DNA from: an uncultured Oscillospiraceae bacterium
GTDB lineage: Bacteria > Bacillota > Clostridia > Christensenellales > CAG-138
NCBI GenBank assembly: GCA_964476505.1
Contig: CAYZAW010000001.1
Coordinates: forward strand, 58,814-122,813
Direction: 5' to 3'
DNA length: 64,000 nucleotides
Each line of letters opens with the position of its first letter. Position 1 is the stretch's first letter. The notes below the pieces were generated by a model. It was not told where the DNA came from, did no database searches, and was given only the letters and a program-made list of their open reading frames with translations. Made by a program: the position numbers and the translations under genes. Shown here one piece after another: positions 1 to 49,621 of the stretch.

Positions 1-3000
1 CGGGGTTGATGAGGATTCCCGGGTCATTGTTGTCACGCGTGGCTTCAAACAGCTTGCAGAACCCGTCGTTGCGGTAGATCAGCCGGATACGCTCTCCCGC
101 TAGCTCGTAGGTGGCAATGCCGCCGGGAATGCTGTCTGTTAGAAGCTTCAGCTTGCTAAACGCATCTCTGTATTCCGTAATATCGCGCCCAATGCCGTAT
201 AAGCCGATCACACTGCCGTTGGATTCTCGCAGTAAATACTTGGAGGTGCTGGAATAGTGCGGAATACCGTCTGCAGAGGGGATGGATTCCACCATGTCCA
301 CGATGGATTTGCCGCTCTCCAGCAGTTGGGTATCGTCTCGCCGGAATTTCTCGGCGGTTTCCGACTCAAACACCTCGTAATCCGTTTTTCCAACGATATC
401 CTTCGGATCGTCGATCCCCGCCATATCCGCGAATGCGCGGCTTACGCAGATGTAGCGGAAGTTTTTATCCTTGGCAAAGGCAAGATCCGTTGTGGAGTCC
501 ATAATGGTGGAAAGCACCACGGGCAGCATTTGCTGGTACGACATTACCTCGTTGGAAATGGGCGTATAGGAGGCGTAAATGGCGTAAACGCCCTCCTCCT
601 TGGGAATGATTCGCCCTACCACATGGAAGGGCTTATAAACGCCCTTGCCGCAGAGGATGCGATAGTCGCAAACGGCATCGCGCTTCTGCCGGATGGCAGC
701 GTCGATCTCCTGCGTGATCACGATTCGGTCGTCCGGGTACACGGCAGAAAGAACGGAGGGGGACGTATAGTCCGCAGGCTCCCGTTCGATCAGCTCCCAA
801 TACCGCTTGTTGAAGTGGATCACAGACAGCTGTTCTCCGTCATACGCGTAAAGGGCAGCGCCGTGGGGCAGGTTATCCAACAGCTCCTTTTGCTGCTTTT
901 CCTCTTTGATCTGCTCGGAGGCATCCGTGAAGTAAAAATTCAAAAATGTATTGCCGAGGGCATCTTTCGAGCTTCGTCCGGATACCTTTGTCCAAATATA
1001 GCCGCCGTTTCCGCGCCTGATACGGTAGCGAGCGGTGATAGCGTCGTTGCTCTGCCGCAGTTGAGACAAAAAGCTTTTGGCAGCGGCGCTGTCTTCGGGA
1101 TGCACGTTTGCCAGCGCGTTGTTTTCGTATAACTCCGTTAAACGGATGTAGCTCATGCCGGTAAGCTTTACCAAGCTTTCGTTAAAGTACACCGGGGTTA
1201 CGGCACCGTCCGGGTGTATGCACAGCCTTGCAAAGCCGCCGGGCATATCCCGCATCATGCTGGCTAAATTTTCGTTGTCGCTGTTGATGCGCGCGGTAAG
1301 ATCGCGCCTAGTCAGCATCACGGCAATGTAATCCCCAAGCGCCGCAAGGCGGTTCACCTGCGTAAGCGGGCGGTGGGGGTCGTCCACACCGATCATTCCC
1401 ACCATCTTGCCGTCGCGGTTGAGCGGCACAGCAAACAGCGAGGTGATACCCTGTGCCAGCAGGCGTTCCTTTTCGTCCGCACGGGCATCGGAAAGCTTTG
1501 CTACGTCGTTGATGGCGTAATACCCGCGCGCCTGGAAGGCATGGAACCAGAATTCAAGTATGGAAAGCGGAATGCCCTGCAGGTTTTCCAGCTCGGCGCT
1601 AATGCCCGGTGCGCATACCTCATAGGTATTGTCGGTAACGCCGCGGTCAAAATCGAACTCAAAGATGTAGGAACGGATACCGCAAAAGTATTCCATGAGC
1701 TTACGCAGCGTGCCGTTGATGCCAACCGAGGTATCCGGCTGCGCCAGCAGCGCGTGCGCGGTTTCGTTGAGGAAGCGTAGCTGCTCGTCTGTATCCTTCA
1801 GCTCCTGCTCTGCATGCTTTTGCTCGGTGATATCCGTAAATATGCAAAGATGCACGTTTTGCTCGATGCCGGTAAAATGCGTGGAGGAAAGCCCAACACG
1901 CACCCAGCGAACAGAGCCGTCCTTCCGTACCAGCCGGTATTCCAGCTGTGCGGGCATGCGGGTCTGATAGGCGTGCACGATGTCTTCCTTCGCTTTTTTG
2001 CGGTCGTCCGGATGAACGGGCGCGTATTTGTCTGTGACCTCCGCCTCGTATTCCTCCCGGGTGTAGCCGTGGATGGCAAAGAATTGCTCGTTGGAGAACA
2101 ACAGCTGAATGCTGCCGTCTTGATCCAGCACGGTTGCGGTGATGCCGCAGCCTACGTCCGCCATGATGGCCTGCATTTGCTCCGCCGTTCTGCGTTCGCG
2201 CTGCTCCGCCTCTTTTTCCTCGGTGATATCCCGCAGGATGGAAAGCTGAACGGGCTCGCTGACCTCAGAGAGCTGACAGATGGAAATGGAGGAACGCAGG
2301 CGAAGCTTGCGGTGATCCCGGGTGACCGCATCGTATTCCACTACTCTTGTGGCTTTTGTATGATTGAGGCGTGCGGTTTCGTCCGCTACCCACGGGCGAT
2401 CCTTGGGGGATATGGTTTGGTAGGGGGAATGCACCTCTTCCTCAAACTGCTCCTTTGTGTAGCCCAGCATGGTATAGTAATGGTCGTTGGCAAACAGGTA
2501 TTGCGCTGCGCCGTCCTTTACCACAGCCGCGATGATGCCGATATCTACATTGTCCATAATGGTTTGCATCCGCGTTGCCGCTTGGCGCTCCGCCTGCTCT
2601 GCTATGCGCTGGGCGGTGATATTCTCGTTGGTGCAATACACAAGGTAGCGGTCTCCCGCCGAGGCGATGACCCGCATGGTGGAGCGCAGGTGTGTTTCCG
2701 CGGGGCAGCCCGGCAGATCACGGAAAATATATTCCTCGGTGACCTCGCTCTTTGCTGCGATGGATTCCTCTAATGCTGCGGTGATTCGCCGCAGCGTTTC
2801 CTCGTCAACATGCTCCGACCAGTTGAGCTTTAGCGCGTCCTCCACGGTGATGCCAACGCCGCCTATCATTTGAGCGTATTTTTCCGTGGCGCGAAGCAGT
2901 TCTATCTTTCCGTTATGGTATTCGTAAATGCATGCACCGCCAACATAGCTGTTGAAAATAAGGGTATCCATGCTTTCCGGGTCCCAGAAAGCGTTGTTAT

Positions 3001-3562
3001 CCAAATTCTCCACCGTTTCCAGCGCAAGCAGGTGTTCCTCCTTGCCCGCGCCTTTACAAAGCGCTTCATACTCCGCTACGGGCATGGGGCGCGCGTATAA
3101 ATAGCCCTGTATGTAATCGCAGCCGATGGAGCGCAGGAAATCCGCCTGCTCTGTCGTTTCCACACCCTCTGCGATCACAGACATATCCAGCCACTTTGCC
3201 ATCCGCACGATGGATTCCACGATGTTGCCGCCCCGCTGGGTGTTGGTGGTGCTCTCCAAGAATTTCATGTCCAGCTTGATGACCTGCGCCGGAACATCCT
3301 TTAATGTGTTGAGCGACGAGTATCCGCTGCCGAAATCGTCTATCTCCACGGTAAAGCCTGCTTTTAAAAGCTGCTTGACCACGGCAATGATCTGCTCGGC
3401 AGACTTGCTGAAGGCGGATTCCGTGATCTCCAAGCGCAGCAGATCCACAGGCAGCCGGTAGGTTTTTACCAGCCCCGTGATCACATCCACGATATCATCC
3501 CTGAAAATATCGTAGCGGGAGATATTCACCGATACCGGAAGCGGGTTTCGCTCTTCGTCGAT
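1..3562 (-). CDS. Continuation of the 3563..4699 reading frame: rest of an EAL phosphodiesterase domain, then a long PAS/GAF/PAS sensor array. The 3' end lies outside the window.
   Basis: Hand translation of the minus strand in the frame of codon 3562-3560 stays open down to position 2. The ORF track shows no closed minus ORF in that frame. Translation gives IDEERNPLPVSVNISRYD, LEITESAF, EIDDFGSGYSSLNTL and GCDYIQGYLYARPMP (EAL motifs), then PAS-like blocks and a GAF-like block (LFAVPLNRDGKMVGMIGVDDPHRP). No ATG with an RBS follows the upstream TAG. Confidence 0.8.
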   Translation of the reverse strand, partial: MDEERNPLPVSVNISRYDIFRDDIVDVITGLVKTYRLPVDLLRLEITESAFSKSAEQIIAVVKQLLKAGFTVEIDDFGSGYSSLNTLKDVPAQVIKLDMKFLESTTNTQRGGNIVESIVRMAKWLDMSVIAEGVETTEQADFLRSIGCDYIQGYLYARPMPVAEYEALCKGAGKEEHLLALETVENLDNNAFWDPESMDTLIFNSYVGGACIYEYHNGKIELLRATEKYAQMIGGVGITVEDALKLNWSEHVDEETLRRITAALEESIAAKSEVTEEYIFRDLPGCPAETHLRSTMRVIASAGDRYLVYCTNENITAQRIAEQAERQAATRMQTIMDNVDIGIIAAVVKDGAAQYLFANDHYYTMLGYTKEQFEEEVHSPYQTISPKDRPWVADETARLNHTKATRVVEYDAVTRDHRKLRLRSSISICQLSEVSEPVQLSILRDITEEKEAEQRERRTAEQMQAIMADVGCGITATVLDQDGSIQLLFSNEQFFAIHGYTREEYEAEVTDKYAPVHPDDRKKAKEDIVHAYQTRMPAQLEYRLVRKDGSVRWVRVGLSSTHFTGIEQNVHLCIFTDITEQKHAEQELKDTDEQLRFLNETAHALLAQPDTSVGINGTLRKLMEYFCGIRSYIFEFDFDRGVTDNTYEVCAPGISAELENLQGIPLSILEFWFHAFQARGYYAINDVAKLSDARADEKERLLAQGITSLFAVPLNRDGKMVGMIGVDDPHRPLTQVNRLAALGDYIAVMLTRRDLTARINSDNENLASMMRDMPGGFARLCIHPDGAVTPVYFNESLVKLTGMSYIRLTELYENNALANVHPEDSAAAKSFLSQLRQSNDAITARYRIRRGNGGYIWTKVSGRSSKDALGNTFLNFYFTDASEQIKEEKQQKELLDNLPHGAALYAYDGEQLSVIHFNKRYWELIEREPADYTSPSVLSAVYPDDRIVITQEIDAAIRQKRDAVCDYRILCGKGVYKPFHVVGRIIPKEEGVYAIYASYTPISNEVMSYQQMLPVVLSTIMDSTTDLAFAKDKNFRYICVSRAFADMAGIDDPKDIVGKTDYEVFESETAEKFRRDDTQLLESGKSIVDMVESIPSADGIPHYSSTSKYLLRESNGSVIGLYGIGRDITEYRDAFSKLKLLTDSIPGGIATYELAGERIRLIYRNDGFCKLFEATRDNNDPGILINP

Positions 3563-4699
3563 CTAGCGCCTTAAATATTGGCAGACTCGCTCCCAAATGC
3601 ATTTATCCAGCTCGTAAACAAAGCCGTTCTTCTCAAATATGGGGATGAACACGCCGGGCGGGATCAAGCCCTTTTCCGGGTGCCGCCAGCGGGCGAGCGC
3701 TTCCGCACCGATGAGTGCGCCCGTGGAGTGGTTGTATTGGGGCTGGAACCACGGCTCAAACTGACCGCCGGAGAGTGCCGATTCCATGTCTGTTACAACT
3801 TCCTGCTCCGAGATGAGGCGTTTGCGAAGAGATTCATCGTAGTTGGCGATCTGCTCATCGTACCGGCCCTTGATGGAATCCGCCGCAAGCATGGCTCTGT
3901 CGTACATGGCGCTGGGGGAAAGGGACAGGTCGTCTACCAGATACCGCCCGATGCTGAAGGTAACGGGGGAGACAAGCCCGTTTACGGTGCTTGCCTGTAT
4001 CCGCATGTTTTTTAAGACTTCTGCGTCCCGCAGCTTGGACGGGTACAGCACGGCAAAATCGTCCGCGGCAACCCGGCATACAATGCCGCCGTGTGCCTCA
4101 AAGCCCTCCCGGAACACATTGGCGATGTACTGTAATACCTCGTCGCCCTTTTTCGTGCCGTATTGATCGTTGATGACCTTGAAGCGGTCGATATCAAAGC
4201 AGGCCATGATGTAATAGCCGGGTGCTTGCGCCTGTACCATTTGCTGCGCCTTCTCAAAGAAGGTTTCCCGGCTGTAAAGCCCTGTGAGCTTGTCCCGCTG
4301 TAACGTATTGACCGTTGCGGCGGCTTCCCGAAGGGCAATGTTGTTTTTCAGGCAGTGGCGGATAACCTCCGGGTTATAGGGCTTCATGATGTAATCGTTT
4401 GCGCCAAGCGTGAGGCATTTGCTTCTGGCTTCTTCGTCCTCGTTGCCGGTGATCATGATAACGGGAATCTGCGATAGCAGCGGGTTCTCCCGAATCCGCT
4501 TCAATACCTCGTAGCCGTCCATTTCCGGCATTACGATGTCCAGCAGTACAGCGGAAACAGACGCGTAGTGATCGGCTAGCGATAAAAGCGCGTCTTTGCC
4601 GCAGGCAGCCTCCAAAACCGTATACTCGGGGGTGAGTGCGGCTTTTAAAAGCTTTCTGTTGGGCGAAATATCATCAACGATCAGCAGCGTTTTTTTCAT
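3563..4699 (-). CDS. Response-regulator receiver + degenerate GGDEF domain + first ~65 residues of an EAL domain, ending at an in-frame TAG
   Basis: ORF track 3563..4810. Start moved to ATG 4699 (MKKTLLIVDD), preceded by GAAAGG. REC motifs are present (LLDIVMPEMDGYE). The GGDEF position reads RVAADDFAVL, which is degenerate. The EAL start reads GAEALARWRHPEKGLIPPGVFIPIFEKNG. Stop is TAG at 3565-3563. Confidence 0.85.
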   Translation of the reverse strand: MKKTLLIVDDISPNRKLLKAALTPEYTVLEAACGKDALLSLADHYASVSAVLLDIVMPEMDGYEVLKRIRENPLLSQIPVIMITGNEDEEARSKCLTLGANDYIMKPYNPEVIRHCLKNNIALREAAATVNTLQRDKLTGLYSRETFFEKAQQMVQAQAPGYYIMACFDIDRFKVINDQYGTKKGDEVLQYIANVFREGFEAHGGIVCRVAADDFAVLYPSKLRDAEVLKNMRIQASTVNGLVSPVTFSIGRYLVDDLSLSPSAMYDRAMLAADSIKGRYDEQIANYDESLRKRLISEQEVVTDMESALSGGQFEPWFQPQYNHSTGALIGAEALARWRHPEKGLIPPGVFIPIFEKNGFVYELDKCIWERVCQYLRR

Positions 4700-4866
4700 A
4701 ACAGCTTGCCTTTCTGTTAAAATACATGTTTTGATGCGGCAACCCGCAAACGATTTCGCACGATAAACGAATACATCATATTCATACCACGAAAATGTGA
4801 AATTTAACATTATATAGAAAAATCTGCTGTATGCTGTAAAAGCGCGTCAACACAAGAGGATTCGTA

Positions 4867-4938: not shown

Positions 4939-7900
4939 TTATTCGTCTTGCCGTGACAGCATATTCCGGTGCTTGTTGGCATACGCCTTGGTAAGCTCTA
5001 TGCCAAGCACATCCGGCTCAATGGGCTTGGAAACATGCGCGTTCATGCCGGAGGAGAGGGATTTTGTGATGTCCTCGCTAAAGGCGTTGGCGGTCAGCGC
5101 AACGATCTGCACGTTGTGCGCGTCCGGGTGGGAGGAGGCACGAATGAGGCGCGTGGCCTCATAACCGTCCATATTGGGCATTTGAATGTCCATAAGGATG
5201 ATGTCGTAATACCCCTTGGGAGAGGCAAGGAACATATCTAGCGCTATTTTACCGTCCTGCGCGCAATCGCAGGTAGCGCCGAATTTTACATGGATGATGT
5301 TTTCCGCTACCATGCGGTTCATGGCGTTGTCCTCCGCCAGAAGGATGCGCATATTTCTAAGATCGTGCGCTGAAGGCACGGATTCCGGCTGGGCGGTGTG
5401 CCCGCCGGAGAGCGTTGCGAACAGGTCGAACAGGGTGGATTGATACAGCGGCTTGGATAAAAACAGGTTAGCGCCCGCAGACTGAATGCTTTCGTCGGAC
5501 TGATAATGGTCGTAGGCGGACGTAACGATAATGTAGGGCTCGCTGCCCAGCATTTCCCGGATGCAGCGGGTGGTTTCCAAACCGTTCATGTTCGGCATTT
5601 TCCAGTCTACCAAGCACACGTTATAGGGATCATCCGTCTTGGCAGCGCGGTTTAGCTCCGTAAGCGCTGCTTCGCCGCTTTCCGCGCACAGGTGGCGCAC
5701 GCCGATGCGCCCCAGCGCGGCGGAAAGATACTCCCTGTCGGCAGCCTCGTCGTCCACGGCAAGAACGTGCAGGTTCTGCGCGCCCTCTAATATGCCGGTG
5801 ACGGCTTCCGCCTCACTTTTGATGAACGGCAGATCAACAATAAAGGTTGTGCCGTGCCCTTGACTGCTTTTTACGGTCACGACCCCGTCCATCATACTGA
5901 CCAAGCTGCCAACGATAGACAGCCCTAAGCCGTTTCCGCCGTATTTCTGCGCGGTCACGGCGTTTTCCTGTTCAAAGGGCTTGAACAGGCGCTCCTGCAT
6001 TTCGTCGCTCATGCCGCAGCCGGTGTCTACCACTTCAAAATGGATGATGACCTTGTCCTTATGCACCGACTGTTGGCTGATGCATAACCGGATAGAGCCC
6101 TGCTCGGTAAACTTGAGGGCGTTATTGAGCAGGTTGAGTAGGATCTGGTTGACCCGAAGCGAGTCGCCCATGAGCCATTCGTCAACGGAGGTCAAATAAA
6201 CGGTTTCGTAGGATAGCTGCTTTTGCCGGCATTGCTGCTCGTAAAGCTCGGTAATGTTTGTGATCAGGCGAATAAAATTGAAGGGCGCATGCGCCAGCTT
6301 CATTTTGCCGGATTCGATGGAGGACACATCCAGTACATCGTTGATAACGGACAGCAGCTGCTTTGCTGCGGTATTGCAATAGGCAAGGTAGGCCTCCGTT
6401 TGCGCGGCGTCCGAATCCTTCGCCAGCTCCATAAAGCCGATGATGGCGTTAAGCGGCGTGCGAAGCTCGTGGCTCACACGGGACAGGAATTGGGACTTTG
6501 CGCTGCTGGCCTGATTTGCGGCGGCAAGGGCTTCGGAAAGCGCCCTGCTCTTTTCTGCTTCCTCGCGGATCAGGTCGGTCACATCCTCGCGCATCATCAC
6601 AATGATCAAGCGCTGGGGATCGATATAATACTGGGTGATTCGCTTGTACCGCACCGTGCCGTCGGGCCGCCGCATGCGATAGGTGTACACGAACCGCCCG
6701 CCGTCCTTCAGGTGGGCATGTATGGTATCGATCAGCGAGTTTTGTATCGCCATTTCCCGATCCTCCGGGAACACGCAGTCGTTATACAAAGAGCGCGTAA
6801 CGGCATCCGCATCGTCTCCGAACTGCGGCGGCATGTGGTACAGGCCTGCCTTTTCCAACACGTCAAAATGCTTGGTTCTGCCGTCGATTCGCGCAACAAA
6901 GTCGTAATTGTCCGTTGCGATGCTGTGGTACATCAGCTCCTGCATCTTTTCCGCTTCAATATCGTACCAGTAGCTGAACAGCAGTATGTTTCCGCTGGCG
7001 GGGTCTCGAAGAAGCCGCAGCGAATTGCGTACCCATGTGACCATGCCGTTTGGCAGCATTCTGCGGTACTCCAGCTTGAATTCGCTTTCGCCGGCGGCAA
7101 AACGCGAAAGGAGCTTGGCAGAATCGTTTAGCGCAAGAAAGCGCGCCCGTTCGTCGTCGTCGATCAAAAGCGATGCGTTTGCCTGCCCGTAGGAGAATAC
7201 GGTTCGCTGGTCTTCCGGCACCACGGAGCCGTCCTGATAGCGGTAATCCAGCATTTCGCCGGTGGTAAGGTCGAAGGTTGCATGGGCAATGAGGTTATCC
7301 TCCGCCATGAAATCCCGCTCTTTTTGCAGCTCCCGTTCGTATTTTACAACGGCCTCCTGCCGCTGGGTCTCGTCGGTAGACATGCCAACAGCCCGGAAGG
7401 GCTTGCCGTTTTCGTCATAGGCGTTGGTGTAGCGGATATGCTCGTACCAGTAGCTCTTGCGGTCGGACGTTAGCACCTTGAATACGCCCTCGGCAAAGGG
7501 TTCGCCGGCAAACAGCTTGTTGTACATCTCTAAAAACGCCGCGGCACTGTCCGGGTGTACAAAACCGCTTTCTATCAGGCTTTCGGGCACGTTAGGCACC
7601 ACTTGCTGAAAGCCGTGCATTTGTGTGGAGTTTTGATATTGAATGATGCAGCGCCGCTTAAAGTCGTACTCCCAAATGCTGACGCTGGTGTTTTTCATAG
7701 CTACGTCAATGATCTGCTCGGCCTTTTTCAGCTCCGTCAGGTCGGTATAGGTGGCGTATACGGTGGCGGTGCCGTCTGCATGCGTAACTGCTTCCGCACG
7801 GATGTGCACCCACTTGAGCCCGCCGTCATCGGTCACGTAACGATACGTCATTTCCTGCTCGCCGCGTTCCTGCGCCATGCTAAGCAGCTTTTCCTGCACC

Positions 7901-46855: not shown

Positions 46856-47230
46856 ATGAAAACCATTGTATCCGCAACCAATGCGCCCGCCGCTCTCGGC
46901 CCGTACAGCCATGCCGTGGAAGCCAACGGCTTTGTATTTACCTCTGGGCAGCTGGGTATCGATCCCGCCACCGGCAAGCTGCCGGCAAGCGTGGAGGAAC
47001 AAACCAAGCAAGCGCTTGCAAATTTAAAAAACGTGCTGGAGGCTGCGGGCACATCAGCCGCTAACGTGCTGAAAACCACCGTGTTCGTGCAGGACTTGGG
47101 GGATTTTGCCGCCGTTAACGCCATTTACGGCGAGTTCTTCGGCAAGGACTTTCCCGCGCGCTCCTGCGTACAGGTTGCCAAGCTCCCCGCAGGCGGGTTG
47201 GTGGAGATCGAGTGCGTGGCGTGTAAGTAG
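46856..47230 (+). CDS. ridA: RidA family reactive-intermediate deaminase (YjgF/UK114)
   Basis: 124 aa. APAALGPYSHAV...FTSGQLG...PARSCVQVAKLP...VEIECVA. Confidence 0.92.
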   Translation: MKTIVSATNAPAALGPYSHAVEANGFVFTSGQLGIDPATGKLPASVEEQTKQALANLKNVLEAAGTSAANVLKTTVFVQDLGDFAAVNAIYGEFFGKDFPARSCVQVAKLPAGGLVEIECVACK

Positions 47231-47232
47231 AT

Positions 47233-47282
47233 TGCCTCCGGCGGCAAGGAACCTTTTGTAGTAGGTTTCTTGACCTCTAAAC
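47233..47282 (-). repeat. Dispersed hairpin element, copy 3 (reverse orientation)
   Basis: Plus strand TGCCTCCGGCGG-CAAGGAACC-ttttgtagta-GGTTTCTTG-acCTCTAAA. Its reverse complement is TTTAGAG...ACAAAAGG-ttccttg-CCGCCGGAGGCA. It starts 2 nt after the ridA stop. Confidence 0.7.
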
Positions 47283-47292
47283 TTTAAAAACA

Positions 47293-47330
47293 AGCAGGAG
47301 CCGTAACAAGTATGGCTCCTGCTTTTATAT
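47293..47330 (+). terminator. Rho-independent terminator downstream of ridA
   Basis: AGCAGGAGCC-gtaacaagtat-GGCTCCTGCT followed by TTTATAT. Confidence 0.7.
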
Positions 47331-47456
47331 AGTAGCTTTGCCTTTGTCCAAGGCGGAAGCCCGCATTGTTTACAAAACACCGCTATTTCTCTATTGCGCC
47401 AGATGGTATGATTTTCCTAGTACTTACTCCCGCACAGGAAAATACGGAGGGATTTC

Positions 47457-48569
47457 ATGCGAAAAGAACGCTTACTGCTGCTATTGCTTGCCATATGGCT
47501 GCTTACCGCCTGCACCGCGCCCGTGGCGGAGCCGGAAGCTACGCCCGAGGCGGCGGCAGATGCGCCTGCGGTCACGGCGGAGCCAACCATGATACCAAGT
47601 CCCACCCTGACCCCTGCACCAATAGAGGAGCTGCCGCCGGAAAACGAACGGCAGTATTACAACTCCGGCTACCCCGCCAGATCACTAAACGGCGGGAGCT
47701 ATACGGCGGACGATTTGAAGCTGTTGGCATTGCGGCTGCGGGAAAAGGATTGGGAGCGGTTATCCGAGGTATTGGAGGTGTTCGGCACGCGGATGGATAC
47801 CTTTGCGCCGGGAGCCGATATCCTTTGGAGCGAGGTATTGGCAAACAGCTATGATACGGAGGGGTATGATGTCACCTTTCCCATAGCGGATGAGGACAGC
47901 GGCATCGTGTATATCCGGCTTCACCCCGCCAGCGTCCGGGAAGGCTGGGAATACCTGATCGTGTTTGAACGGAAGACAGCAGGGCGGGGGAGTGGCCTTT
48001 CTTCCTTGGCGGAGAAGGGGGAAACACTTTATGCGCCACGCTGCGTGATAAGCTATTATGCGGACTATTACGATTCGGACGGAGACTATATCCTGCGCTT
48101 TGTGAAGCTGGGCAGCCAGACCTATGCCATTTGGAATGGGCTGGTGGGTCACGGAACCGGCTATGAGGCGTTTGGGCGGAAATGGTTTTCGCTTATTAAC
48201 GGGCAGGATGTGTTCGCCTATGATAAGTGGGGTGGGGAAAGTACATCAAGAAACGGTGGATGGGTCACGGAAAACTGGGATAACCATGTATCATACGAGG
48301 CGGTACCGATAGGCGACGCCGGGGATTTTTACTTGGAGGCCACGGCAAAGCGGGAGTTTTCTGTTGAGGATACCGTGCAACCGGAATCCTATACCTGCCG
48401 CTACCGGGTATATTACAGCGCTGAAAAGTGGGCGTTTTATACCGCTATCGATGCGCTTTTGCCTCTTTATGAGCAGGCGAAAACAAGCAATGAACCCTAT
48501 GTAGCGCAATGGGCGGAAGGAAGGATCGCAGATATCAACGAAGCCCGCGCGGTGGTAAAAGCAGGTTAA
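47457..48569 (+). CDS. Hypothetical lipoprotein
   Basis: 370 aa. MRKERLLLLLLAIWLLTAC lipobox, Ala/Pro/Glu-rich linker. No family recognised. Confidence 0.7.
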   Translation: MRKERLLLLLLAIWLLTACTAPVAEPEATPEAAADAPAVTAEPTMIPSPTLTPAPIEELPPENERQYYNSGYPARSLNGGSYTADDLKLLALRLREKDWERLSEVLEVFGTRMDTFAPGADILWSEVLANSYDTEGYDVTFPIADEDSGIVYIRLHPASVREGWEYLIVFERKTAGRGSGLSSLAEKGETLYAPRCVISYYADYYDSDGDYILRFVKLGSQTYAIWNGLVGHGTGYEAFGRKWFSLINGQDVFAYDKWGGESTSRNGGWVTENWDNHVSYEAVPIGDAGDFYLEATAKREFSVEDTVQPESYTCRYRVYYSAEKWAFYTAIDALLPLYEQAKTSNEPYVAQWAEGRIADINEARAVVKAG

Positions 48570-48610
48570 TAATCACAAGCCCATGTTGGGCATTTATGGT
48601 AAGTATTATA

Positions 48611-48666
48611 TTAGAGTTTTAGGCGGTTCAAACCCTTTTACAAAAGGGTTTGAACCGCCGGAGGCA
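48611..48666 (+). repeat. Dispersed hairpin element, copy 2 (overlaps the rluD 3' end)
   Basis: TTAGAGTTTT-a-GGCGGTTCAAACCCTTTT-ac-AAAAGGGTTTGAACCGCC-GGAGGCA. An 18-bp perfect stem. The rluD stop codon (48640-48638) sits in the loop. Confidence 0.75.
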
Positions 48667-49621
48667 AAAACGCCTCCCCATCCCAGCCCGCTTTTTTCAG
48701 CGCGGCAAGAAAGTATTCCGGAACAGGTGCAAAAAACACCATATCCTCTCCGGTGCGCGGGTGCGTCAATTGCAGGCGGTACGCGTGAAGCGCCTGCCCC
48801 GATAGCCCCAGCCGGGGCTTTTTTTGTCCGTAAACGGTATCTCCCGCTACGGGGTGCTTGCTATATGCCATGTGTACGCGAATCTGGTGGGTGCGGCCTG
48901 TTTCCAGCCGCGCTTCGATCAACGTATAGTCTCCCAACCGTAAAAGCACGGTAAAGTGCGTGACTGCCTCCCGCCCATTAGGTACCACCGCCATGCGCTT
49001 GCGGTCAACGGGGTGGCGGCCGATAGGCGCGTCGATCGTGCCGCTGTCTTCCTTGATGTTCCCCTCCACAAGGGCAAGGTAACTGCGCCTTGCGGTGTGT
49101 GCCTTGATCTGCGCCGCAAGGGAGGCGTGTGCCATGTCGTTTTTTGCTACTACGATGAGGCCGCTTGTTAGTTTATCGATTCTGTGTACGATGCCGGGGC
49201 GCTTGACCCCGCCAATGCCGGAAAGGTCGTGCACATGATACAAAAGCGCGTTTACCAGCGTACCGCTTTCGTTGCCGGGGGCGGGGTGTACCACCATGCC
49301 CTGCGCCTTGTTGATCACGATCATATCGCTATCCTCGTATACCACACAAAGCGGGATGTTTTCGGCAACAAGCGCCAGATCCTCCGGCGGGGGCACCAGC
49401 AGCCGCACTTCGTCGCCCTGCTTAAGCTTGCGGTTGGCCTTGGCGGGCGCGTTGTTTACCGTAGCGTCGCCGTTTTCGATCAGCTTTTGCGCCTGCGCCC
49501 GGCTCAACTCTGCCGCACAGGAAAGAAACACGTCAAAGCGCACCCCTGCTTCTGTAACGGAAAACAGGCGCTCCTCCGCGTCCTCCAGTTCTTCCTCTGG
49601 CAGGCGTTCGCAATCGGTCAC
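48638..49621 (-). CDS. rluD: 23S rRNA pseudouridine synthase, RluD subfamily
   Basis: The lower part of the 520-aa ORF 48638..50200. GTG 49621 overlaps the lspA stop (GTGA). S4 domain (RFDVFLS...SRAQAQKLIENG), then INKAQGMVVHP and HRIDKLTSGLIVVAK. Confidence 0.88.
   Translation of the reverse strand: MTDCERLPEEELEDAEERLFSVTEAGVRFDVFLSCAAELSRAQAQKLIENGDATVNNAPAKANRKLKQGDEVRLLVPPPEDLALVAENIPLCVVYEDSDMIVINKAQGMVVHPAPGNESGTLVNALLYHVHDLSGIGGVKRPGIVHRIDKLTSGLIVVAKNDMAHASLAAQIKAHTARRSYLALVEGNIKEDSGTIDAPIGRHPVDRKRMAVVPNGREAVTHFTVLLRLGDYTLIEARLETGRTHQIRVHMAYSKHPVAGDTVYGQKKPRLGLSGQALHAYRLQLTHPRTGEDMVFFAPVPEYFLAALKKAGWDGEAFLPPAVQTLL

Follow-up and report, generated by a model that had tools for sequence, protein, structure and literature searches.

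Repetitive extragenic palindromic (REP) sequences of Proteobacteria, including their BIME and REPIN arrangements, are short extragenic imperfect palindromes in which a conserved single-stranded head stands by a hairpin, and they are mobilised by RAYTs, Y1 transposases of the IS200-like kind. Their usual place is the 3′ region between two convergent or tandem genes, and they occur as solo copies, head-outward inverted doublets or mosaics that have no coding capacity and no target duplication. The HUH/Y1 enzymes at REPs and at the right ends of IS200/IS605 use a hairpin with conserved single-stranded flanks and a boundary 12 nt 3′ of the stem foot, and they make no target duplication. Group 1 RAYTs extend into Clostridia, and no repeat matching the one described below was given with them (PMC5581495). 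The present analysis concerns a ~54-nt repeat in a 64,000-nt stretch from an uncultured Oscillospiraceae bacterium (contig CAYZAW010000001.1 of assembly GCA_964476505.1, positions 58,814 to 122,813), which is referred to as the window. Three copies, A, B and C, are present, and two of them (A and B) bracket a single lipoprotein gene between the convergent genes ridA and rluD.

CtsR, ClpC and SpoVAC mark the window as ordinary chromosome of a spore-forming bacterium of the Clostridia. For the bracketed block, a first-pass annotation made from the letters had offered two readings, a cassette with a cargo gene or two independent insertions of a REP-like element. The second gained support from the finding of a dispersed hairpin repeat with a solo copy and relatives in other genomes, while no support was obtained for the cargo cassette. 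We are confident that the window repeats are copies of a dispersed REP-like family. The full explanation, which includes the independent insertion of A and B, is in our opinion probable.

Comparison with Described Repeat Systems

Like REP sequences, the window repeat consists of a hairpin with a conserved flank, and all three of its copies occupy 3′ sites of the extragenic type. The heads of the two families are different. The REP head is GTAG (GT[A/G]G), which is not conserved here, whereas the head of the window family is the 12-mer CCGCCGGAGGCA on the 3′ side of the stem, with a T-run and AGAG on the 5′ side. REPs are usually lineage-specific, whereas this 12-mer is found in several phyla and on plasmids. 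No RAYT gene was found to be flanked by units of the window family, and the RAYT-like gene of locus L219 is flanked by a different REP. REPINs replicate as inverted doublets with a short spacer. In the window family, tips-outward doublets of 150–420 bp exist in Desulfoluna, Selenomonadaceae and Yoonia; A and B enclose a gene at a spacing of 1.36 kb, and copy C stands alone.

Miniature inverted-repeat transposable elements (MITEs) and similar repeats (Correia, ERIC/IRU, RUP, BOX) are also small, non-autonomous, intergenic hairpin repeats, which are sometimes co-transcribed and can change gene ends. However, MITE terminal inverted repeats match those of an autonomous insertion sequence, and MITEs make target duplications; neither was seen for the window family. 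Unlike MITEs, window-family copies within one genome differ wholly in the stem and keep the flanking boxes. The ends of IS200/IS605 and of PATE derivatives share with the unit a subterminal hairpin, a boundary ~10–12 nt 3′ of the stem foot, a T-rich 5′ side and the lack of target duplication. However, these ends are not inverted and carry both hairpins on one strand, whereas A and B are inverted. No tnpA/tnpB genes accompany the window family, and the Rfam models IS605-orfB and HEARO gave no match.

The pdif modules of Acinetobacter plasmids and the attC cassettes of integrons are likewise single genes between short sites, and attC is conserved in structure and variable in sequence. Nevertheless, no XerC/D-type 11-6-11 site exists at the window units, the RYYYAAC/GTTRRRY boxes of attC are absent, and the TTAGAG and 12-mer flanks are not complementary. 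Moreover, attC arrays are direct and located beside intI, whereas window-family copies are dispersed in both directions with no integrase nearby.

A scan of the window and 18 element-bearing loci at Rfam gathering thresholds returned tRNA and RNase P only. The Rfam E-value scans around A/B, the plasmid module and the Desulfoluna unit (see below) remained at chance level, the best score being that of Pseudomonas small RNA P8 (24.8 bits against a gathering threshold of 60). The 10–12-mers retrieved only eukaryotic primer coincidences from the searchable open full-text literature. Being absent from Rfam and from this literature, the repeat family is apparently undescribed.

Repeat Units in the Window

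Each unit consists, from 5′ to 3′, of a T-run/TTAGAG box, a variable-stem hairpin with a CTTTT/AAAAG apex and the invariant 12-mer CCGCCGGAGGCA. The window contains the following three copies and no others (hairpins are given in parentheses, and bit scores are those of the covariance model described below):

47232..47282, minus strand: copy A, read on that strand as GTTTAGAG-GT-(CAAGAAACCT / loop ACTACAAA / AGGTTCCTTG)-CCGCCGGAGGCAA, with the 12-mer at 47233-47244, the hairpin at 47245-47272 and CTCTAA at 47275-47280; 59.2 bits
48611..48667, plus strand: copy B, TTAGAG-TTTTA-(GGCGGTTCAAACCCTTTT / AC / AAAAGGGTTTGAACCGCC)-GGAGGCAA, with the 12-mer at 48655-48666; 70.3 bits
25699..25753, plus strand: copy C, solo, TTAGAG-TTTTGGGTT-(CTTAGGGGCTTTTG / CAAAAGCCCCTAAG)-CCGCCGGAGGCA; 71 bits

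A and B are inverted relative to each other, with their 12-mers outward, and enclose 1.4 kb. Their ends, TTGCCTCCGGCGG (47232-47244) and CCGCCGGAGGCAA (48655-48667), form a perfect 13-bp inverted pair, which widens to 37-nt arms with 76% complementarity. The coordinates, the sequences, the 13-bp pair and the mirror-image order of hairpin and TTAGAG had all been reported in the first-pass annotation, and sequence inspection, pattern search and folding agreed with it on each of them. Its third, solo copy was recovered by the covariance model as copy C.

The exact 12-mer occurs three times in 64 kb, and five sites were found with at most one mismatch against 0.6 expected. The pattern TTAGAG-N15-45-CCGGAGG was observed three times (0.06 expected), a number reached in none of 100 shuffles. 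The remaining GCCGGAGGC sites of the window are coding and have no hairpins. In all three copies the hairpin abuts the 12-mer and folds well as DNA on either strand. The folding energy was −21.1 kcal/mol for copy B (z = −7.9), −13.8 kcal/mol for copy C (z = −3.1; −3 to −4 for either strand) and −8.3 kcal/mol for the plus strand of copy A (z = −2.2), which includes one G·T pair. A covariance model of 16 related units, with A, B and C themselves among the sequences used to build it, was run on the window with filters off. It returned the three copies at 59–71 bits and nothing else above 12.3 bits, except for opposite-strand readings of the same hairpins.

The stems of A and B are unrelated, and therefore the two are not a recent duplicate pair. 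No direct repeats were found in the flanks of A, B and C or of the A–B pair (left GTAAGTAGA, right AAAACGCCT), so that the lack of a target-site duplication reported in the first-pass annotation still holds. The unit is not an intrinsic terminator, as no U-run follows the hairpin on either strand.

Genes around the Copies

The features between and including the two flanking genes are as follows:

46856..47230, plus strand: ridA (Ribonuc_L-PSP, PF01042), the left flank, convergent with rluD
47285..47331, plus strand: intrinsic-terminator-like hairpin GCAGGAGCC...GGCTCCTGC, with an A-run before it and a T-run after it, directly beyond copy A and inside the block
47457..48569, plus strand: lipoprotein open reading frame (ORF), 370 aa, with a signal peptide and an LTAC lipobox, no Pfam family
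48579..48591, strand unassigned: small GC hairpin GCCCA-TGT-TGGGC, T-rich on both sides, between the lipoprotein stop codon and copy B
48638..49621, minus strand: rluD (S4 and PseudoU_synth_2, PF00849)

ORF and Pfam analysis upheld the earlier description of the block as a terminator, a promoter region and one lipoprotein gene between convergent ridA and rluD; the promoter region is a promoter-like stretch. The tip of copy A lies 1 nt beyond the ridA stop codon (47228-47230). Judging by its sequence, the strong hairpin at 47285-47331 is most simply the putative terminator of ridA, while that at 48579-48591 is a weak candidate for a bidirectional terminator common to the lipoprotein gene and rluD.

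The rluD reading frame enters copy B (...GEAF-LPPAVQTLL*), from which come the final nine codons (LPPAVQTLL) and the stop codon at 48638-48640, the latter being within the hairpin loop. In an alignment of ten RluD proteins, conservation extends up to ...GWDG(E/T)xF, after which the tails differ, and the homology of the window rluD with its closest relative stops precisely at TTGCC, the start of the element tip. Copy C follows the tspO stop codon (25644) and precedes a terminator-like hairpin that lies upstream of mnmA; it points the other way from A and B when each is compared with its upstream gene. Each of the three copies is therefore found between a stop codon and a terminator. Transposase, integrase or recombinase domains were absent from the 52 window ORFs that are 90 aa or longer.

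With the lipoprotein as query, a word-indexed search of 5.8 billion proteins returned the query itself only. An exhaustive HMMER search of 1.84 billion representative proteins gave 13 relatives, the best with 37% identity. Two homologues (P0002 and P0004, 35–37% identity) were traced to contigs, where they lie in unrelated neighbourhoods with no 12-mer within 4 kb. The longer homologues (~600 aa) have an additional C-terminal region. The AlphaFold model of the lipoprotein is confident (pLDDT 81) and beta-rich, and no PDB fold match was found at E < 1e-3. The proportion of G+C at third codon positions (GC3) is 0.62 in the lipoprotein gene versus 0.67–0.71 in its neighbours.

Seven contigs, each from a different sample, carry the exact lipoprotein, always at the same locus and in the same arrangement. 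Because all of them share 99.9–100% DNA identity, no polymorphism is seen across these contigs. The next RluD has 76% identity. Its contig keeps the polA-coaE-SLT-SBP-lspA-rluD synteny without an element after rluD, and a different lipoprotein gene follows rluD in the same direction. Among the next relatives, other genes occupy this place. Nothing ties the lipoprotein gene to the repeats.

Distribution of the Family

A total of 185,579 species genomes were scanned for TTAGAG-N15-45-12-mer, and the occurrences given here are among the matches listed. Many of these fall in coding sequence and match by chance; in others, which recur within a genome, a hairpin stands directly before the 12-mer. 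In Sphingomonas and Sandaracinobacter such units form a ~235-bp composite ending in ...TTAGAGGGT-GCAGGGAAATCATTTCCCTGC-12-mer, and units were also found in Novosphingobium, Pseudogemmobacter and Pseudotabrizicola. The Yoonia unit is ~200 bp long and has 33-bp inverted ends, and a 190-bp doublet is present in Selenomonadaceae. Desulfoluna has two end types (alpha and beta), with six copies in 8 kb, mostly as intergenic tips-outward doublets, and an Aminicenantes metagenome-assembled genome (MAG) carries the alpha end as in Desulfoluna. Other units belong to Desulfovibrionaceae, Maridesulfovibrio, UBA8132, a Dehalococcoidia MAG and a Limisphaerales MAG.

The unit of Clostridiales UMGS726 is the closest to that of the window, and one UMGS726 contig breaks at the element. 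Two UMGS726 copies (L015 4913-4990 and L073 55-160) have ~25 nt beyond the tip in common (A[T/A]ATG..AAAGAAC..AAA.CCATA) and share a further TTGACAATCC..GGGTTTTTGACAG motif. Since the shared sequence continues beyond the tip, the UMGS726 repeat is longer than the core unit. In total, the family spans Clostridia, Negativicutes, Alphaproteobacteria and Desulfobacterota, as well as MAGs of Aminicenantes, Verrucomicrobiota and Chloroflexota. We estimate that far fewer than one repeat family with both motifs would be expected by chance. The Sphingomonas 225-bp unit and the delta-type unit had no plasmid or phage match in annotated collections, and E. coli genomes yielded nothing useful.

A metagenome scan for CAAAAG-N8-12-mer gave 111 exact matches at 104 loci. 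In about half of these, the eight free positions (N8) are complementary to sequence lying upstream of them; stems are present far above chance. An abundant metagenome type, AAAAGGTTTTGGGATT-CTTAAACCCTTTTG-CAAAAGGGTTTAAG-CCGCCGGAGGCA, is nearly identical to copy C. Copy density ranges from 3 per 64 kb in the window to 6–7 per 8–15 kb elsewhere, and the densest metagenome contigs carry at least 7 copies in 14.6 kb.

Mosaics also occur, in which one to three tandem degenerate 12-mers can stand between the hairpin and the tip (CCCTCGGAGAGG-CCCCCGGCAGGG-CCGYCGGAGGCA). In L195 (12069-12122 and 13035-13086) the degenerate tandem 12-mers CCCTCGGAGAGG and CCCCCGGCAGGG stand before a terminal CCGYCGGAGGCA. 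The 12-mer itself is a near-palindrome of CCTCCGGAGG. A GGCGAAGCC mini-hairpin was found ~11 nt upstream of many delta-type units (L155 ~7250-7265, L156, L195, L203, L213 and others), and this sequence contains the very stable d(GCGAAGC) mini-hairpin. Tandem arrays of 52–53 nt, each unit with CAAAAGCRAYGCAGCCGCCGGAGGCATGCCGGGCTGACGGCATGCGG, are present in L141, L171, L191, L212, L234 and L238 (JAEEG* contigs).

The alpha end, TTTGGCCCCCGGCAGGGCCGCCGGAGGCA, recurs at 100% identity in 129 PLSDB plasmids, whose hosts include Klebsiella, Aeromonas, Citrobacter, Enterobacter, Pseudomonas and others. In the IncP-6 plasmid Rms149 it is located in the backbone and adjoins a Tn3-family insertion. On these plasmids the alpha end closes a hairpin-rich unannotated module with the final sequence GGCCCCCGGCAGGGCCGCCGGAGGCAT, the 30-mer of which is present in all 129 plasmids. 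Three of the fetched loci contain it:

L129 3001-3030; L130 2905-3032; L131 (Rms149) 3501-3620: ~125-nt plasmid module

Between the IncP-6 and rep_cluster_658 backbones, homology stops right after GGAGGCAT, and in a sister plasmid the corresponding place is taken by a different hairpin module. Related GCGAAGCG motifs occur in units of Desulfoluna and also upstream of the ~125-nt module on plasmids.

Structure, Orientation and Pairing of Units

In a stem-anchored alignment, the 12-mer always abuts the stem foot and a purine-rich box follows the T-run on the 5′ side, while the stem bodies vary freely. Stem length is 8 to 23 bp overall and 10 to 18 bp in window-type hairpins. Across 16 window-type units, 97% of cells pair and 8 of the 13 pairs change on both sides; none of 500 shuffles matched this, and slid registers collapsed. 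As these units were chosen for having stems, the values describe varied stems in one frame and not the existence of the stem. The sequence past ...GGCA is unrelated among copies, and the 12-mer is the outer boundary of the unit, as is also seen from the plasmid and rluD homologies that end there and from the broken UMGS726 contig.

In tandem-gene contexts, the two orientations were equally frequent (16:16), so there is no strand bias. Convergent contexts numbered 18 versus 6 divergent ones, and the stem mismatches comprised 10 G·T versus 6 A·C. The elements act as DNA-level repeats with no orientation preference. An ORF start placed to use the GGAGG of the 12-mer follows 6 of 79 copies, and with so few the idea of a mobile Shine–Dalgarno donor was rejected. 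A tRNA-derived origin (T-arm plus acceptor strand) was also rejected, given the variation of the stems and the fact that the sole tRNA of the window is unrelated, as was a sigma-54 promoter in the beta-type hairpin, where the GG-GC spacing differs between copies.

Two orthologous loci, L220 (~1750-1830) and L227 (reverse strand, ~580-700), share 78.7% identity over 2.4 kb. The unit is at the same site in both, 6–7 nt upstream of the same LysE-like start codon, and the 12-mers and 5′ boxes are identical. The stems, of 14 bp and 21 bp, are unrelated.

Neighbouring units at least 500 nt apart formed 14 pairs in the fetched loci, of which 10 were direct, 2 tips-inward and 2 tips-outward. One tips-outward pair (L195 3625-4594) encloses a larE-like gene between larC and larB; this larC-larE-larB cluster is a conserved operon and not cargo. 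In the Limisphaerales MAG (L042 770-1630), a perfect 28-bp inverted repeat including the 12-mer is present on both sides of one secreted-protein gene. The larE-like and the secreted-protein genes bear on a check proposed in the first-pass annotation, a search for other gene-sized segments bracketed in the same way. Such segments do exist, but tips-outward bracketing recurs at about chance frequency and is not enriched. No target-site duplication was found at L030 and L042. The tips-outward doublets of 150–420 bp in Desulfoluna, Selenomonadaceae and Yoonia look like units.

Proposed Origin of the Copies and Alternative Explanations

We suggest that A, B and C are separate copies of a palindromic repeat like REP and BIME sequences, ~54 nt long and non-coding, which would lodge in 3′ untranslated regions (UTRs), between stop codon and terminator. 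Copy A may have inserted 1 nt past the ridA stop codon; copy B may have entered rluD close to its end, within the last codons, and would now give this gene a C-terminal tail and a stop. A and B resemble terminal inverted repeats because ridA and rluD converge and both 12-mers face gene ends. The enclosed lipoprotein gene would then be a resident, rarely seen gene with its own promoter. Since a terminator lies within the block and copy B overlaps rluD, each copy is most simply a single-unit insertion at a 3′ end. We infer that the copies arrived by insertion, and the units may affect mRNA 3′ ends.

A unit without coding capacity must be moved in trans. The most likely mover would be a RAYT-like HUH/Y1 enzyme acting on the hairpin in single-stranded DNA and cleaving 12 nt 3′ of the stem foot, because the unit shares the hairpin, flanks, boundary and lack of target duplication of HUH/Y1 substrates. 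This proposal is made by analogy and is tentative; we regard it as possible but doubtful. Clustering of all ORFs within 2.5 kb of elements revealed no recurrent neighbour gene, and no ORF-bearing element with these ends was found in ~240 loci. Nor was a longer element seen that combined an ORF with a second copy of the hairpin.

Several observations weigh against this proposed origin. No Y1/HUH gene was found beside the elements in 1.76 Mb of fetched loci or in the window; in tblastn searches with approximate IS200 and YafM sequences and the actual L219 protein as Y1 queries, the sole match was L219, and its RAYT-like gene is flanked by arrays (including 1085-1400) of a different REP, GCCGGGGGC...GCCCCCGGCTAG. 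No empty site was found for copy A or copy B. According to a rough estimate, the placement of two of three copies in neighbouring intergenic regions with tips outward would be a ~3% coincidence if random. The 150–420 bp doublets show that a pair can be a unit, and the slightly lower GC3 of the lipoprotein gene is a weak hint of foreign origin. Finally, the pattern at L220 and L227 could reflect a host-level constraint (GGAGG as ribosome-binding site), copy conversion or site preference.

As to L219 itself, the Y1 gene (583-1038, minus strand; PF01797, 2e-26) is 7 kb from a 12-mer unit. The stem of the REP that flanks it resembles the terminal hairpin of the alpha-type end.

Alternatively, A and B could terminate a single mobile element, similar to a REPIN doublet or a pair of MITEs, that has captured the lipoprotein gene and moves it as cargo. 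Such a cassette is consistent with the perfect 13-bp inverted termini and outward 12-mers, with the improbable adjacency of two of three copies under random placement, with a near-orphan cargo of slightly lower GC3, with the doublets that behave as units and with the Limisphaerales repeat, which likewise encloses one gene. However, neither a target duplication nor a second copy of the block was found, the seven contigs representing one locus, and the lipoprotein homologues lack flanking elements. The block includes the ridA terminator, and the rluD frame runs into copy B. Furthermore, tips-outward pairs make up 2 of 14, one of them around a core operon gene, the unrelated stems of A and B do not form a recent duplicate pair, and the window ORFs include no transposase or recombinase. 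We therefore find the cassette very unlikely. A related proposal, which appears extremely improbable, is that A and B are the recombination sites of an invertase that flips the lipoprotein gene and its promoter for phase variation. Surface lipoproteins are frequent targets of phase variation, and inverted repeats do surround a surface-protein gene plus promoter here. However, there is no recombinase domain in the window, all seven independent assemblies have one orientation, solo copies and direct pairs predominate elsewhere, and a flip would move the ridA terminator and alter the rluD stop codon.

The invariance of the 12-mer across phyla, together with compensatory changes in the stems, might instead point to a host cis-element kept by selection, for example a protein-binding or exonuclease-blocking RNA structure in the 3′ UTR, or else a site on the DNA for a conserved protein. 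The orthologous L220 and L227, which keep the position and the 12-mer while their stems differ, are in line with this, as are the location of A, B and C between stop codon and terminator and the perfect GGAGG at Shine–Dalgarno distance from a start codon in 6 of 79 copies. The orientation with respect to transcription, however, is evenly divided, without a G·U bias that would favour one strand. Copy number varies widely, copy B disrupts the end of an ORF, and modular mosaics with tandem degenerate 12-mers are present. The unit also resides on unrelated plasmid backbones with a sharp boundary, and no Rfam family matches it. Selection of this kind is, in our judgement, an unlikely explanation.

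Returning to the REP-like family, a broader proposal can be formulated, although we consider it rather unlikely. A system that spreads horizontally and works on folded single-stranded DNA may recognise the hairpin with CCGCCGGAGGCA as its end; alternatively, the hairpin with CCGCCGGAGGCA may be a conserved host-factor site. The unit would be modular, with the GCGAAGC mini-hairpin as an optional part and tandem degenerate 12-mers, and its pairs could occasionally bracket and relocate single genes such as the lipoprotein gene. In either case it is common to Clostridia, Negativicutes, Alpha- and Gammaproteobacteria (IncP-6 and related resistance plasmids), Desulfobacterota and other phyla.

At the window locus the outcome is ordinary: palindromic repeats in two adjoining 3′ regions, one of which rewrites the last codons of rluD. 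What is unusual is that distant phyla, as well as plasmids of clinical relevance, share an identical 12-base end and one hairpin frame, although lineage specificity is the norm for REP-like elements. Should a single enzyme family or conserved host factor read the 12-mer end, it would be a widespread, unnamed player in genome structuring. Through the pattern and the covariance model, the recognition site is sufficiently defined for a partner search by phyletic association.

Apart from the repeats, a response-regulator GGDEF-EAL ORF at 3566-4810 of the window (minus strand) ends after 77 of the 236 positions of the EAL profile, which may be due to a truncation or a frameshift.

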